From: Escherichia virus Lambda_4B5
Sequence record: LR595863.1
Reading direction: 5' to 3' (one strand)
Length of the DNA: 48,141 nt
This document shows, one piece after another, positions 22,524 to 33,775 of the stretch (its first letter is position 1; every line of letters starts with the position of its first letter). Made by a program: the position numbers and the translations under genes. Under the pieces are notes generated by a model. The model did no database searches. It saw only the letters and a program-made list of their open reading frames with translations, and was not told where the DNA came from.

Positions 22524-22798
22524 AAGATTTAACTTTGAAATTTCCTGGTAACAGAGAGTTTAAATCCTTCCTGTCATCTCTTGACTGGGAGGAGGATGAA
22601 GACCTCCAGAATAAACTGTTAGTCGATGAAATTGGTTTCACCTACACAGAAACAGGGGTAACAGAAGAGGGAGAACCTGTCTGTGTCCGGAATGACGGTT
22701 ATTTTGTCAACATTCGCATTCTTGATGACTTGTTTGATGTTTCTGTATTCTCTGATTATGTCGTGGAGCTGGAAACACCGCTTCGGGAATGGAGCTGA
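22520..22798 (+). CDS. Hypothetical acidic protein coupled to stf (possible fibre chaperone or accessory protein)
   Basis: 92-aa ORF whose ATG overlaps the stf stop (ATGA); no resemblance to lambda Tfa that I can see. Confidence 0.55.
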   Translation: MKDLTLKFPGNREFKSFLSSLDWEEDEDLQNKLLVDEIGFTYTETGVTEEGEPVCVRNDGYFVNIRILDDLFDVSVFSDYVVELETPLREWS

Positions 22799-22810
22799 AA
22801 GGAGGAAATA

Positions 22811-23104
22811 ATGGATATAAGCCCCTTACTTCATGCACTTTGTGCTGTGGCTGCGCAGATACTGGTTGGTCTTTTTACCGGAAACTGGGCTTACGGAGCG
22901 ATAGCCGGTTGTACGTTCTTCATTGCGCGTGAACATACCCAGGCAGAATATCGCTGGATTGAAATGTTCGGGCATGGCAAGCGAATGAATATGCCGTGGT
23001 GGGGCGGTTTTGATCCGCGAGCTTGGGATGTGGCAAGCCTGATGGATTTTGCTGTGCCGGTGGTGGCGTGTCTGCTGGTCTGGCTGTTGGTTAATCGTGG
23101 GTGA
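22811..23104 (+). CDS. Hypothetical small membrane protein
   Basis: 97-aa ORF with GGAAA RBS-like sequence upstream and two hydrophobic segments (N-terminal and C-terminal). Confidence 0.55.
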   Translation: MDISPLLHALCAVAAQILVGLFTGNWAYGAIAGCTFFIAREHTQAEYRWIEMFGHGKRMNMPWWGGFDPRAWDVASLMDFAVPVVACLLVWLLVNRG

Positions 23105-23195
23105 AAAAAGGTGAGCTGTATATGCAACGGAGGAAGAAACCCCGTTGCTGGAAGCCAGGAAAAAGTATCGGGTGTTGCTGTCCTCGGATGTTGTG

Positions 23196-24053
23196 CTAAT
23201 TGGGTGATAACAGATCCTGTGTATGGGAGTTTCCCTTTTTGCGTGCGTTGATGCTGGTAACGGCAAACGTCATGATGAACAAAACCGCGAATAAGACGAC
23301 AATCGTCGGAGCTGGTGCGCTGTCGATAAAAAAGGACAACCAGACACCAGTCATTGACACTATTACCGATATGCCAGTCGCCAGTAGGAGCGCAATATGA
23401 AAGCGTTGTGTCAGGAGTACCGCAATGGCGCCAGGCGCAATGAGCAGAGAAATGGAGAGAATGATACCTACCGCTTTCAGCGTCGCCACAATGGTCAGAG
23501 AGACCATGCACAGCAGCCCATAATGCAGCCATCTCGTATGCAAACCGCTTACCTGCGCCTGTTGATAATCAAAGCTGAACAGCAAAAAATCCCGCCATTT
23601 TACGCTAATAACAAGTGTAACCAGCCCGGCAATAATCATCGTCTGGATTATATCGCCGATGGTTATCCCGAGCATGTCGCCGAAAAGAATATGGTCAAGA
23701 TGTACGTCTGGTTTGACTGCAATATACAAGATCAGACCTGCGGCAAACATGCCAGAAAAAACAATCCCCATCACTGTATCTTGCTTGATTCGGCTGTTGT
23801 CTTTCAGGTATCCCGTCGCCACCGCGCAGAATACTCCGGCGACGAATGCCCCTGTAGCCAAAGGTAACCCCAGAATCCAGGCAAGCACGATGCCAGGAAA
23901 AACCGCATGACTCATCGCGTCACCCATCAGTGCCCAACCTTTCAGGACCAGAAAGACCGACAGCAGCGCACAGGGTATGGAAACTACCAGTGAAATCAGC
24001 AGTGCGTGACTCATAAAGGTGAACTGCAGTGGCTCCAGTAATAATGCCATCAT
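23196..24053 (-). CDS. sitD: Mn/Fe ABC transporter permease
   Basis: 285-aa polytopic membrane protein, last gene of a four-gene metal ABC operon; 4-bp overlap with upstream permease. Confidence 0.85.
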   Translation of the reverse strand: MMALLLEPLQFTFMSHALLISLVVSIPCALLSVFLVLKGWALMGDAMSHAVFPGIVLAWILGLPLATGAFVAGVFCAVATGYLKDNSRIKQDTVMGIVFSGMFAAGLILYIAVKPDVHLDHILFGDMLGITIGDIIQTMIIAGLVTLVISVKWRDFLLFSFDYQQAQVSGLHTRWLHYGLLCMVSLTIVATLKAVGIILSISLLIAPGAIAVLLTQRFHIALLLATGISVIVSMTGVWLSFFIDSAPAPTIVVLFAVLFIMTFAVTSINARKKGNSHTQDLLSPN

Positions 24054-24907
24054 GAGCGATCCTCCAGCGCCTTATGCGCACGCCGACGATTTGCCAAAAG
24101 CCCATGGGTGGGCGCAAAGACAAATGCTAAAAGAAACAGCAGTGTCTGCGCCACCACGATGATTCCACCTGTCGCGCCGTCCAGAAAGTAACTGACCCAC
24201 GCGCCGAGGAAACTGGTTACACTGCCAATAGTTACAGCAATCATGAGCAGGCGGGGAAAACGATCGGTTAACAACCATGCTGTTGCACCGGGAGTCACCA
24301 CCAGACAGATCACCAGAAAGGCACCAACCGTTTGCAGCGCCGCAACGGTCGAAACCGACAGCAGGGTGAAGAAGAGGAGTTTTAATCTGCCCGGATGCAA
24401 TCCAATAGCACGGGCGTGATTCTCGTCGAAAAAGGTCACCATAAGATCTTTCCATTTGAAAAAAAGCACGATGATCGAGAGAATGCCAATGATAGTGAGT
24501 TGCAGGATATCCGCCGGATCGATTGCCAGAATATTGCCCAGGACGATGGTCTGAATGTTCACAGATGTCGGGTTCAATGACACCATAAACAGCCCCAGGC
24601 CAAAAAAGGACGAGAAGATCAGACCGATGATGGCATCTTCTTTTAAGCGGGTGCGTTGGTTAAGAAACAGCATGCTGCCCGCAGCCAGTCCGCCGGAAAA
24701 GAAGGCTCCCAGAGAAAACGGAAGCCCCAGCATATATGCCCCCGCAACACCCGGGACAATAGAGTGCGACAACGCATCGCCAATCAGCGACCAGCCTTTT
24801 AGCATCAGATAGCATGACAGGAAAGCGCAGAGACCGCCGACCATCGCCGAGACCCACATCGCATTGAGCATATATTCATAGCTGAAGGGTTCCAGTAGCA
24901 CGTTCAT
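24050..24907 (-). CDS. sitC: Mn/Fe ABC transporter permease
   Basis: 285-aa polytopic membrane protein of the same family, overlapping neighbours by 4 bp. Confidence 0.85.
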
Positions 24908-25731
24908 CTTTCTTCCCTCTGCACCGCTGACGGTCGATGAGCCACAAAAGGGCGTTCATCGTCAGTAATAATGCTTTCTTCCGAGCCGTTAAGTGTGACA
25001 TGGCGCAGTACGCCGCTAAAAGCCAGCTCTAGGTTCTCGGCTGTAAAAGTGGTGTCTGTCGGCCCGCTTGCCAGGACGGTGCCTTTGACCATGACCGTAT
25101 AATCGCAAAATGTCGTGACGGATCCGAGATTGTGTGTTGAGACAAGCATCGTTTTGCCTTCCGCGCGTAACTCCCTCAACAGGCTGATGATTTTGGCTTC
25201 GGTTTTCACATCAACGCCAGTAAAAGGTTCATCCAGCAGGATCACATCACCCTGCTGTGCAATCGCTCTCGCCAGAAAGACGCGTTTCTTTTGTCCACCG
25301 GAAAGCTCGCCGATTTGTCGATGGCGAAAATTCACCATATCGACACGTTCCAGCGCATCGGTGACAATTTGACGATCCCTCTTTTTGGCGATACGCAACA
25401 TACCCATATGCCCATAGCGGCCCATCATCACCACATCTTCCACCAGTACAGGAAATGACCAGTCAACATCTTCTGACTGAGGGACGTAGGCAACCAGGTT
25501 TTTCTGTAACGCCTGTCGCGTGGGAATACCCAGAACAGATATCTTTCCGCTGGTCAGACGCACAAATCCCATAATCGCTTTAAACAACGTCGATTTTCCG
25601 GAACCGTTTACCCCAACCAGAGCGGCAATAGATCCACTTGGTACTGTGAAGGATGCATCGCGCAGTGCTGTGTGCCCGTTACGCCAGGTGACAGTAACAT
25701 CATTAACGACAATGCCTGCAGATTGCATCAT
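24904..25731 (-). CDS. sitB: Mn/Fe ABC transporter ATP-binding protein
   Basis: Walker [13 protein letters not shown] signature LSGGQKKR, Walker B ILLDEP. Confidence 0.9.
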
Positions 25732-26645
25732 TATTTCTCCCTTTTCCCAGCTTTAATTCCCTGTACCAGCGTACTGGTAGTAACCTTAAGAAGGTCGATA
25801 TACGTCGGTACCGGGCCGTTTTCTGTGCTCAGGGAATCGACATAGAGCACACCGCCGTAGTGTGCGCCGGTTTCACGCGCAACCTGACGCGCTGGTTTAT
25901 CGGAAATCGTACTCTCGCTAAAGACTGCCGGGATATGATTTTTCTTAACTATATCAACAACCTTACGTACCTGCTGCGGTGTTCCTTGTTGATCGGCATT
26001 AATCGGCCACAGATAAAGCTCTTTTAGCCCCAAATCGCGTGCGAGATAAGAAAAAGCCCCTTCACTGGTGACCATCCATCGCTGATTCTCAGGGAGTTCC
26101 GTAATCTGCTTACGCAGGGGGGCAAGGGTTTGGGTAATCTTGGCTTTATAAGTATCGGCATTGCGTTGGTAGGTTTGTGCATTTGCCGGATCGTATTTTA
26201 TCAACGCATCACGAATATTATCGACGTAAATCAGAGCATTATCTGGCGACATCCATGCATGGGGGTTAGGTTTGCCCTCATAGGGTCCTTCGGTGATCCC
26301 TACAGGCGTCACACCCGAAGAGACAATTACTTCTGGAACCCCATTGAGATGCTGGTAAAAGCGTTGGAACCACAATTCCAGATTCATACCATTGGCGAGA
26401 ATCAGTTGTGCCCCCTGCGCACGTTTAATATCGCCAGGGGTAGGCTGATACTCATGAATTTCTGCACCAGGCTTGGTTATGGATGAGACTTCTGCAGCAT
26501 CTCCCGCCACGTTTTTGGCCATATCCGCGATGATGGTAAATGTTGTAATGACCTTGAATTTTTCAGTTGCACTTGCCTGAAATGCGATCGAGCAGGTGAG
26601 TGCGAGCCCCCCCAAGAGCATGGTTACTTTTTTTATCGAGTGCAT
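25731..26645 (-). CDS. sitA: Periplasmic metal-binding protein (cluster A-I solute-binding protein)
   Basis: 304-aa protein with N-terminal signal peptide, His/Glu metal-ligand pattern of SitA/YfeA/MntC-type binding proteins. Confidence 0.88.
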
Positions 26646-26677
26646 AATTTAGTACCTATAGTGAGCAAAATTAGAAC

Positions 26678-26699
26678 AAACATAGCAACGGCTATGTTT
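26678..26699 (-). promoter_or_regulatory. MntR box (Mn-responsive repressor site) in the sitA promoter
   Basis: Near-perfect palindrome AAACATAGC-AACG-GCTATGTTT about 35 bp upstream of sitA ATG, matching the E. coli MntR operator as I remember it from mntH. Confidence 0.7.
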
Positions 26700-26718
26700 T
26701 ATAGCACAGCCTATACAA

Positions 26719-26738
26719 AATGAAAATGATTATCATTA
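26719..26738 (-). promoter_or_regulatory. Fur box in the sitA promoter
   Basis: AAAATGAAAATGATTATCATTAG resembles the Fur consensus GATAATGATAATCATTATC. Confidence 0.65.
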
Positions 26739-27038
26739 GCAGCTTTGAGGCCCAAAACAGGGATTAGGTTGTTTCCTGCTGGCGACGCGTTATTGAGGAA
26801 AAAAGTAAGGCAGCTAGTAGGCTTTGAAATAACGTTTTGCGGTTGGCTGATGCAATTTCGAGAGTGCATGTATTGAATGATTTCTAGCCGTTACTGATTT
26901 TCGTATTTTTTGTATGGGAGGATTTGCACCTCCCCCCACCGAGCCTCCATGACTTTACTCCACTGTCTCTAGGGCTGCTGTGTGCCAGGAGCGGAAGCAG
27001 GGGGGGCCAGAGACTCCTTAAAAGTTGATAGCTCGTTT

Positions 27039-27136
27039 TGCAGGGAGACTTACACGGTAAGCGTTATTCCGAAGAGCTTAAAATTGAAGCAGTCAAACGG
27101 GTTGTTGAGCGTGTTTATGCGCTGCCATCTGATTAA
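27039..27136 (+). pseudogene. Remnant of an IS3-family transposase OrfA N-terminus
   Basis: Short frame translating ...GKRYSEELKIEAVKRVVERVYALPSD* resembles the conserved N-terminus of IS3-family OrfA proteins; truncated at both ends. Confidence 0.35.
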
Positions 27137-27332
27137 TCGACGGAAGCAGTTCCGTTTGGTCTATGATGCAGTTGTCCGGCAGGCGCTCTGTGACGCAAAA
27201 GAACGATAGGAGTAGCATTGAAGTGAACGAGGTTATGCTTGTCTTATATTATCCTCTATTTTAAAAACATCAGCTGGTTGTGTAAGAGTTTTTATTGTTT
27301 TATCTTGTTGACTTTGCTTTTATGAAAACAGA

Positions 27333-28103
27333 GTGATTGATACAATGAAAACCTTAAGTGGGAAAGAGTTTAGGAAATTATTTAATCGTTATGAGACAGG
27401 ATTCTATCTAAGTGAGTTTGAATACTTAAAGGACTTTGATCCTTTGTTTCCTGAATGCGTAGGGAAAGAATTAAAGTTGGGTTATAAACGAAAAGTTGAT
27501 GTATGGTGCGAAGAGGATGCTGCGCTATATGCAGAATTTATAGCTACAAAAGAAAGGCTGAAAAGAGGCCGGTTAATCCTAAAAATAAACCAAGTGTGGT
27601 CGCGTGTATATCCTGCTTATATTTATGCAATTGAAGAAAGAATAAATGTCAGGGCAAAGGGGAGAGAGTCATTTAAGTATGAAACTGTGCAAGAAAAACA
27701 ATGTAAACTTTCCATAATGTTAGATGGTCTGAAAGACCTTGAATGTGAAATAGCTATGATTTCAAGTGAGTTTGAAATTGAAAAACACTCTATGCACTAT
27801 TTTTATATGATTTTTGATATTGAACGCTATATAAATGACTGCAGTTACTTTGTTTTTTCTGCTGCTAAAGTTGTTAAAGGCGTGATTCAATGCATTGGTT
27901 ACATTGACAAAAATAACAAAGCAAGTTGCGATGAATTTTATTCAGGCAGCTATGAATGCTTGGATGATGATCAGGAAACACTGAACTATTTAAATGAATC
28001 ATGCGCAGAGGGTATAGACGCTGATAAAGATCTCATCAGGAAGAATGAGTTATTAGCCTTATCCCTGAAGGAATTGTATCAACTTCTCGTTTCAAAAAAA
28101 TAA
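27333..28103 (+). CDS. Hypothetical protein, AT-rich orphan
   Basis: 256-aa ORF in a markedly AT-rich segment between the sit operon and attP; no family recognised. Confidence 0.7.
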   Translation: MIDTMKTLSGKEFRKLFNRYETGFYLSEFEYLKDFDPLFPECVGKELKLGYKRKVDVWCEEDAALYAEFIATKERLKRGRLILKINQVWSRVYPAYIYAIEERINVRAKGRESFKYETVQEKQCKLSIMLDGLKDLECEIAMISSEFEIEKHSMHYFYMIFDIERYINDCSYFVFSAAKVVKGVIQCIGYIDKNNKASCDEFYSGSYECLDDDQETLNYLNESCAEGIDADKDLIRKNELLALSLKELYQLLVSKK

Positions 28104-28571: not shown

Positions 28572-28727
28572 CATATGGGCTGGACTGAAGCCGCAGACCT
28601 GATTGTTAAAGGTATGGAAGGCGCAATCAACGCCAAGACTGTAACCTATGACTTCGAACGTCTGATGGAAGGCGCTAAATTGCTGAAATGTAGCGAGTTT
28701 GGCGACGCGATCATCAAGAACATGTAA
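28572..28727 (+). pseudogene. icd: Phage-borne 3' fragment of isocitrate dehydrogenase gene (replacement icd end)
   Basis: Frame translates [51 protein letters not shown], the Icd C-terminus with two substitutions relative to the E. coli sequence I remember; homology stops abruptly upstream near 28563. Confidence 0.85.
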
Positions 28728-33570: not shown

Positions 33571-33703
33571 TTTTTGGGACTCCTGGCTGATTAAGTATGT
33601 CGATAAGGCGTTTCCATCCGTCACGTAATTTACGGGTGATTCGTTCAAGTAAAGATTCGGAAGGGCAGCCAGCAACAGGCCACCCTGCAATGGCATATTG
33701 CAT
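33539..33703 (-). CDS. cIII: CIII (FtsH/HflB inhibitor stabilising CII)
   Basis: Reverse complement reads ATGCAATATGCCATTGCAGGGTGGCCTGTTGCTGGCTGCCC..., matching lambda cIII DNA as remembered; 54 codons, below the ORF-track threshold. Confidence 0.8.
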   Translation of the reverse strand: MQYAIAGWPVAGCPSESLLERITRKLRDGWKRLIDILNQPGVPKNGSNTYGYPD

Positions 33704-33775
33704 GGTGTGCTCCTTATTTATACATAACGAAAAACGCCTCGAGTGAAGCGTTATTGGTATGCGGTAACGCCGCGC

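Follow-up and report, generated by a model that had tools for sequence, protein, structure and literature searches.

Dual repression of the sitABCD operon by Mn-MntR and Fe-Fur was reportedly demonstrated genetically in Salmonella enterica (Ikeda et al. 2005, J Bacteriol 187:912). Reviews and later papers treat the repression of sit by MntR and Fur as established in both Salmonella and Shigella, and for these bacteria dual MntR/Fur control of sit is textbook knowledge. The E. coli gene mntH belongs to the same Fur plus MntR regulatory set as sit; in its promoter a Fur box is followed by an MntR operator, AAACATAGC-AAAG-GCTATGTTT, directly ahead of the start codon. For enterobacterial MntR, the published consensus reads AACATAGCnnnnGCTATGTT (PMC1698941, with reference to Ikeda 2005). 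In E. coli CFT073 (Banerjee et al. 2020, PMC7157518), the icd site holds a lambdoid prophage whose right end carries sitABCD; lambdoid tail genes are followed there by sitDCBA, orf256 and then an icd fragment.

A sit promoter with two operator-like elements is also said to exist in Rhizobium leguminosarum, where Diaz-Mireles and co-workers reportedly found two Mur-responsive sequences upstream of sitABCD in 2005. The Mur/MRS regulon is described in PMC1698941. The R. leguminosarum promoter resembles the arrangement predicted below in that a Mn-responsive repressor acts via two adjacent operators. It differs, however, in using the Fur-family protein Mur instead of the DtxR-family protein MntR, and in its motif; the four alphaproteobacterial sit loci that we checked contained no ATAGC-N4-GCTAT cores.

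The window, i.e. the whole stretch of DNA that was analyzed (48,141 bp; Escherichia virus Lambda_4B5, LR595863.1), is a complete lambda-like phage genome of the Perceval/Lambda_ev type, which starts at cos. The terminase, head and tail genes are on the plus strand and extend up to ~22.5 kb; the sitDCBA block is on the minus strand (23196-26645). The genes and elements that are relevant for the sit operon and its surroundings are the following.

23196-24053, minus strand: sitD, permease (metal ABC permease families; RefSeq annotation)
24050-24907, minus strand: sitC, permease (metal ABC permease families; RefSeq annotation)
24904-25731, minus strand: sitB, ATP-binding subunit (NF011630, manganese/iron ABC transporter ATPase, 592.8 bits versus a cutoff of 393)
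25731-26645, minus strand: sitA, periplasmic Mn/Fe-binding protein, an ORF with its ATG at 26645-26643 (metal ABC substrate-binding families)
27333-28103, plus strand: orf256, a conserved 256-aa ORF (phrog_20520, E = 1e-177) in the interval from the sit promoter to attP, divergent from sitA
28575-28727, plus strand: icd 3' fragment ORF, an alternative 3' end of icd that adjoins attP and ends at a stop codon
28841-29983, minus strand: int
33658-33716, minus strand: lambda cIII thermoregulator element (Rfam)
36783-37490, minus strand: CI-type repressor

The product of sitA is annotated as SitA in the matching E. coli genomes and phages, while orf256 gave no NCBIfam match. Between these two genes lie ~690 bp of non-coding DNA (26646-27332; 43% GC), which include the sit promoter. 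An Rfam scan of the window at gathering thresholds returned only the lambda cIII thermoregulator and no element near sit. The sit cargo is positioned between the tail-fibre genes and attP/int, outside the set of lytic and lysogenic genes; this is the position of a moron. A match to a host genome stops at ~28564, which marks the att junction. The presence of an alternative icd 3' end beside attP means that the phage integrates into icd and rebuilds the gene. The element e14 and phage 21 likewise integrate into icd and restore it.

We conclude that the phage very probably carries a native sitABCD promoter-operator as an autonomous moron in the b-region of an icd-integrating lambdoid coliphage, under the control of Fur and MntR. 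The elements on which this reading is based are listed below; all of them are given on the sit strand.

26678-26699, minus strand: O2, predicted MntR operator, AAACATAGC-CGTT-GCTATGTTT, with the core ATAGC-N4-GCTAT at 26682-26695
26698-26706, minus strand: predicted extended -10 element, TGcTATAAA (TG at 26706-26705, hexamer at 26703-26698), formed by the right arm of O1
26701-26714, minus strand: O1, second MntR-type core palindrome (ATAGGCTGTGCTAT), ATAGG-CTGT-GCTAT, 9/10
26721-26726, minus strand: predicted -35 hexamer, TTTTCA, 4/6 to TTGACA, with a 17-nt spacer to the -10 element
26722-26740, minus strand: Fur box, GCTAATGATAATCATTTTC, 17/19 to the 19-bp consensus GATAATGATAATCATTATC

The first-pass annotation had placed a near-perfect palindrome about 35 bp upstream of sitA. 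The palindrome turns out to be exact. On the plus strand O2 reads AAACATAGCAACGGCTATGTTT (AAACATAGC-AACG-GCTATGTTT), with perfect arms of 9+9 nt around a non-palindromic 4-nt spacer, and it is separated from the ATG of sitA by 32 nt. It is the sole match in the window to AAACATAGC-N4-GCTATGTTT when up to 3 mismatches are allowed; the chance expectation for such a match is 0.02. O2 also matches the MntR inverted repeat AACATAGC-N4-GCTATGTT perfectly, with 10/10 positions in the core, and its arms agree with the mntH operator of E. coli K-12 at 18/18 positions.

A Fur-box-like site had been proposed about 40 bp beyond this palindrome, and the distance from centre to centre is indeed ~40-42 bp. 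The site itself is present, with 17 of 19 positions matching the consensus, but it is best read in a slightly different register. The 19-mer that had been quoted, AATGAAAATGATTATCATT at 26719-26737, is shifted by 3 nt and scores 11/19 to the Fur consensus in that register; the end coordinate was off by one. The box at 26722-26740 has the top Fur-consensus score in the whole window, in which 0.02 matches with no more than 3 mismatches are expected. It is composed of two overlapping 7-1-7 motifs (TGATAATnATTATCA) with an offset of 6 bp, one with 13/14 matches at 26721-26735 and the other with 12/14 at 26727-26741. Hence both elements, the palindrome and the Fur-like box, are confirmed, and their occurrence is far beyond chance. 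Consensus sites for FNR and ArcA were absent from the region 26600-27340 at the thresholds used.

One more site in the window resembles a Fur motif. The second-best Fur-consensus site, at 48092-48106, includes a perfect 14/14 match to the 7-1-7 motif (TGATAATTATTATCA) and is located ~35 nt from the right cos end. We rejected it as a sit-related site, since lambda has TGATAATCATTATCA at the same place and the sequence is hence a conserved cos-proximal one. We take this to be the cosQ area.

The same order of elements is present in the Salmonella operon. In S. enterica sitABCD the order is again Fur box, O1, O2 and ATG, with the same distances. In the locus of S. enterica subsp. arizonae that we examined, O2 has the sequence TAACATAGCAAAGGCTATATTC and is located 35 nt from the ATG, while the Fur-like box is 80 nt from the ATG. 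The boxes in the window are nearer to the consensus than those of Salmonella, with 18/18 versus 15/18 positions for O2 and 17/19 versus 13/19 for the Fur box. A further difference is that the Salmonella copy is chromosomal (SPI1) whereas that in the window is phage-borne. The order of Fur box and MntR operator is also shared with mntH. The latter differs in that it has a single full palindrome with an extra upstream half-site and no 19-bp tandem; it also has an OxyR site and is a core chromosomal gene. The CFT073 promoter is nearly the same as that in the window: only 4 of 160 upstream positions differ, all of them outside the Fur box and the palindrome cores, and the Fur box and the arms of O2 and O1 are identical.

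The near identity with CFT073 allows the Fur box to be linked to data from E. coli. In CFT073 a Fur ChIP-seq peak (height 526) maps to sitA, and the motif under it is GCTAATGATAATCATTTTC (PMC7157518, supplementary tables); the Fur 19-mer in the window is identical to this motif. In the fur mutant of the same strain the expression of sitB rises 20-fold, that of sitC 16-fold and that of sitD 8-fold (PMC7157518). In addition, sitABCD is part of the Fur regulon of two pathogenic strains as determined by ChIP-exo, and a Fur box was reported upstream of all lambda-borne sit operons (Mathieu et al. 2020, PMC6969025). The proposal that the operon is plugged into the iron sensing of the host is supported by the shared 19-mer under the CFT073 peak and by the rise of sitBCD in the fur mutant. 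A search of the window by tblastn found no Fur or MntR homologue encoded by the phage (best E about 1); mntR is a gene of the K-12 chromosome, which means that the host supplies MntR.

Closer inspection of the promoter revealed a second core palindrome, O1, which the first-pass annotation had missed. Its centre is 19 bp upstream of that of O2, and it overlaps the predicted -10 element and the spacer. The resulting tandem has the layout ATAGC-N4-GCTAT, N5, ATAGC-N4-GCTAT, with 19 bp from centre to centre. The consensus of O1, ATAGCCTGTGCTAT, is equal to the core palindrome upstream of K-12 mntS; when the flanks are counted O1 matches only 9/18 positions of the full consensus. A comparison of the phage allele with the allele of plasmid pMHW-2 shows a reciprocal degeneracy of one base: in the phage O1 has 9/10 and O2 10/10 matches, in the plasmid O1 has 10/10 and O2 9/10.

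We examined the conservation of these elements in a set of sitA loci with one genome per species. The set comprises 20 Enterobacterales loci in addition to the window, CFT073 and the plasmid allele from pMHW-2, which makes 23 promoters in total. The ATAGC-N4-GCTAT core is found at the same position in 23/23 of these promoters, and the tandem of O1 and O2 occurs with an invariant spacing of 19 bp in all of them. The tandem pair was absent from 14 sitA loci outside the Enterobacterales, including lineages for which manganese control by Mur or Fur has been reported. A Fur-like box at a fixed distance upstream of O1 is present in E. coli, Salmonella, Klebsiella, Citrobacter, Raoultella and Enterobacter, and it is placed in the same way in Buttiauxella, Phytobacter, Shimwellia, Atlantibacter and Erwinia amylovora; it is absent from most Pantoea sit promoters. 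In ten further E. coli loci with an identical SitA there are few promoter variants, and all of these are outside the Fur box and both cores. The occurrence of the same layout in 20 other Enterobacterales loci means that it is ancestral to the operon. From this alignment it would follow that the phage acquired the promoter architecture together with the sit genes.

The Pantoea promoters deserve a separate description. Four loci (L005, L009, L010 and L011) have kept the tandem MntR cores but not the Fur-like box. What they have in common instead is a GAAGAAACTTCACA-type sequence ~45-25 nt upstream of O1; one of them has TAAGAAACTTCACA. Two more loci (L020 and L021) are also devoid of a Fur-like box and have a different upstream sequence. 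This pattern suggests that Pantoea sit has a different or missing iron input.

The same alignment bears on the question whether the palindrome acts as RNA, for instance as a hairpin, an attenuator or an intrinsic terminator that acts within the sit leader or on incoming transcripts. A terminator scan lists 26699-26678 on the minus strand, where a T-rich tail comes after a stem of 9 bp, and the stem of O2 as RNA folds at -8.7 kcal/mol. The pattern of substitutions in the 23 promoters is nevertheless different from what is seen in an RNA stem. Each of the five core pairs retains its bases and is never replaced by a different Watson-Crick combination. At the four flanking pairs, pairing is lost in 26-48% of the sequences with no compensatory change, and the 4-nt spacer is hypervariable. 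Fixed arm bases, a variable spacer and uncompensated flanks are the signature of an inverted repeat recognised by a protein and not of an RNA stem. Two palindromes at a fixed spacing of 19 bp, with arms like those of the mntH MntR operator, also speak against an RNA function. Furthermore, the predicted start of transcription is inside the left arm, so that the full stem would not be transcribed. Taken together, a role of the palindrome as RNA is hardly credible.

The position of the core promoter can be predicted from the sequence. The -10 and -35 elements listed above are our assignment; the presumed -35 hexamer falls within the Fur box, at its 3' end, and the 17-nt spacer contains the left arm of O1. 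The assignment of the -10 element is supported by the finding that GCTATAWAA is conserved in most of the aligned sitA promoters. A promoter scan of the window called no sigma-70 promoter at Psit; the -10 element was not called because the hexamer TATAAA is without the conserved final T. With these elements transcription would start near 26691-26693, inside O2, and the leader would have a length of ~46 nt. O2 is then predicted to cover ~-8 to +14 relative to the start site. An alternative candidate for the -10 element, GATAAT, is also found inside the Fur box; if it is used, O1 and O2 would be downstream of the start site and act as roadblocks.

From this layout a simple mechanism can be proposed. 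Fe(II)-Fur from the host would bind to 26722-26740, i.e. to the two overlapping 7-1-7 sites, over the -35 region. Mn(II)-MntR from the host would bind to the tandem, with O1 (26701-26714) over the -10 element and O2 (26678-26699) over the start site. Either repressor would occlude RNA polymerase, so that the operon would be fully on only when iron and manganese are both scarce. From the operator sequences and by analogy with the known systems we infer that MntR occupies O1 and O2 in the phage allele; the two operators may be used cooperatively. Part of the conservation of O1 could be due to the -10 element and not to the binding of MntR. We consider it possible, if somewhat doubtful, that a phased pair of MntR operators is a cooperative and previously undescribed feature of Enterobacterales sit promoters. 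If this is true, the tandem would mean that two MntR dimers bind cooperatively, which would result in a steeper Mn switch than that of mntH. The literature that we searched, which did not extend to Ikeda 2005 and RegPrecise, contained no description of tandem MntR operators at sitA, and the operator sequences themselves turned up nothing but primer listings. The dual Fur/MntR arrangement of sit as such is correct and already documented.

The proposed link to manganese sensing of the host is supported by the match of O2 to the consensus, by the identity of its arms with those of mntH and by the conservation in 23/23 promoters; on these grounds MntR probably controls the phage-borne operon. A related observation comes from CFT073, in which a deletion of mntH raises the transcription of sitA 2-fold (PMC13463694, 2026). 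Such a rise is expected if a lower import of Mn relieves repression by MntR.

These data need to be compared with a scenario in which the Fur box alone has a function in E. coli and the MntR-type palindromes are inherited relics in the phage-borne copy. Direct evidence from E. coli, namely ChIP-seq and ChIP-exo, is available for Fur alone. The papers on lambda-borne sit (PMC6969025, PMC9928086) mention Fur and neither MntR nor the palindromes, and the paper on manganese in CFT073 (PMC13463694) never invokes MntR. Against this scenario, O2 is an 18/18 copy of the mntH operator arms, mntR is present in the K-12 chromosome, and both cores are invariant in the sampled E. coli alleles while the adjacent bases vary. 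The phage and plasmid alleles, which are 91% identical overall, each keep one perfect and one 9/10 core. Also the increase in sitA expression upon deletion of mntH argues against an exclusive role of Fur. We therefore regard a promoter with Fur as its only functional regulator as quite improbable, and favor the control by both Fur and MntR.

The first-pass annotation had further implied that the operon follows the metal sensing of the host while the prophage is repressed and that it is not driven by phage promoters. Data from E. coli LF82 are relevant for both statements, since the promoter of its Perceval prophage is identical to that in the window. In the LF82 lysogen sitA-D are transcribed 4-13-fold above the silent background of the prophage, and they were classed as morons (PMC9928086). 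The expression in the lysogen agrees with the first statement. The second one is valid for the integrated prophage, in which att separates sit from pL, and it does not extend to the vegetative circle, in which read-through is possible. The reason for this is the geometry of the genome. In the integrated prophage sit is located at the right end beside attR, where it points inward and is antisense to the late operon. When the vegetative genome is circular, int and the pL operon are upstream of sit and have the same orientation, so that read-through during lytic growth is possible. A single weak terminator-like hairpin (28368-28345) was found between sit and the int/pL side, and a simple scan of 22600-23196 detected no terminator-like site just downstream of sitD that could serve as an insulator.

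The same geometry would fit with a mainly phage-driven expression of sit, by N-antiterminated read-through from pL across int and attP, with the metal boxes having only a modulating effect. The orientation of sit on the minus strand is shared with int, the cIII thermoregulator element and cI, and the weak hairpin at 28368-28345 is the only terminator-like element in between. The leftward genes of the b-region in lambda are similarly co-oriented. But in the integrated prophage the att site (~28564, with the icd fragment at 28575-28727) parts sit from pL, and the LF82 lysogen expresses sit while the neighbouring phage genes are silent. Moreover, the same promoter is present on plasmids and in SPI1-type chromosomal loci without any phage context. 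We consider it very improbable that sit is mainly under the control of phage promoters. In a lysogen the self-contained Fur/MntR promoter would instead make sit independent of the CI/N/Q circuitry of the phage.

This arrangement explains how a transporter operon that is widely spread by phages can benefit the host without being under phage control. Since the operators of the cargo answer to two regulators from the E. coli chromosome, the operon would be shut off as long as metals are abundant and switched on by nutritional immunity. The phage and UPEC papers that we examined treat the operon as controlled by Fur only, and the MntR operators have been overlooked in them. These operators would account for the reported rise of sitA in the mntH mutant.

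The operon is widely distributed. It is carried by 70% of lambda isolates from the infant gut (Mathieu et al. 2020, PMC6969025), and is found in 83% of UPEC genomes versus 33% of faecal genomes (PMC13463694). In the assembly index the exact SitA protein is listed in 36,162 blocks. Among the matches listed, the sit region (23196-26900) has 99.8-100% identity to isolated coliphages such as Lambda_2E9, 1H12, ev207 and Perceval. Over the promoter region (26560-27000) the identity to the E. coli LF82 prophage and to many other E. coli chromosomes is 100%; this region was matched in 2,350 of 5,426 complete E. coli genomes and in 991 plasmid places.

The sitA gene of CFT073 (L083, 9215-10151) is annotated as a frameshifted pseudogene in RefSeq, and it is listed as a pseudogene also in the Fur ChIP-seq paper (PMC7157518). 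The strain has clear sit-dependent growth and virulence phenotypes (PMC13463694). The frameshift could stem from a mistake in sequencing or annotation; alternatively, the frameshifted form may be functional.

The homology between the phage allele and the allele from plasmid pMHW-2 (91% identity over the matched segment of sitA and promoter) reaches ~185 bp upstream of the sitA ATG. This length of shared upstream DNA is consistent with a self-contained module. An identical SitA was also found with other upstream neighbours, namely with acetyltransferase and HTH genes, at a PmrD-adjacent site and at a DarT-adjacent site (loci L098, L099 and L101). The sit module is therefore present at several integration sites or in several elements.
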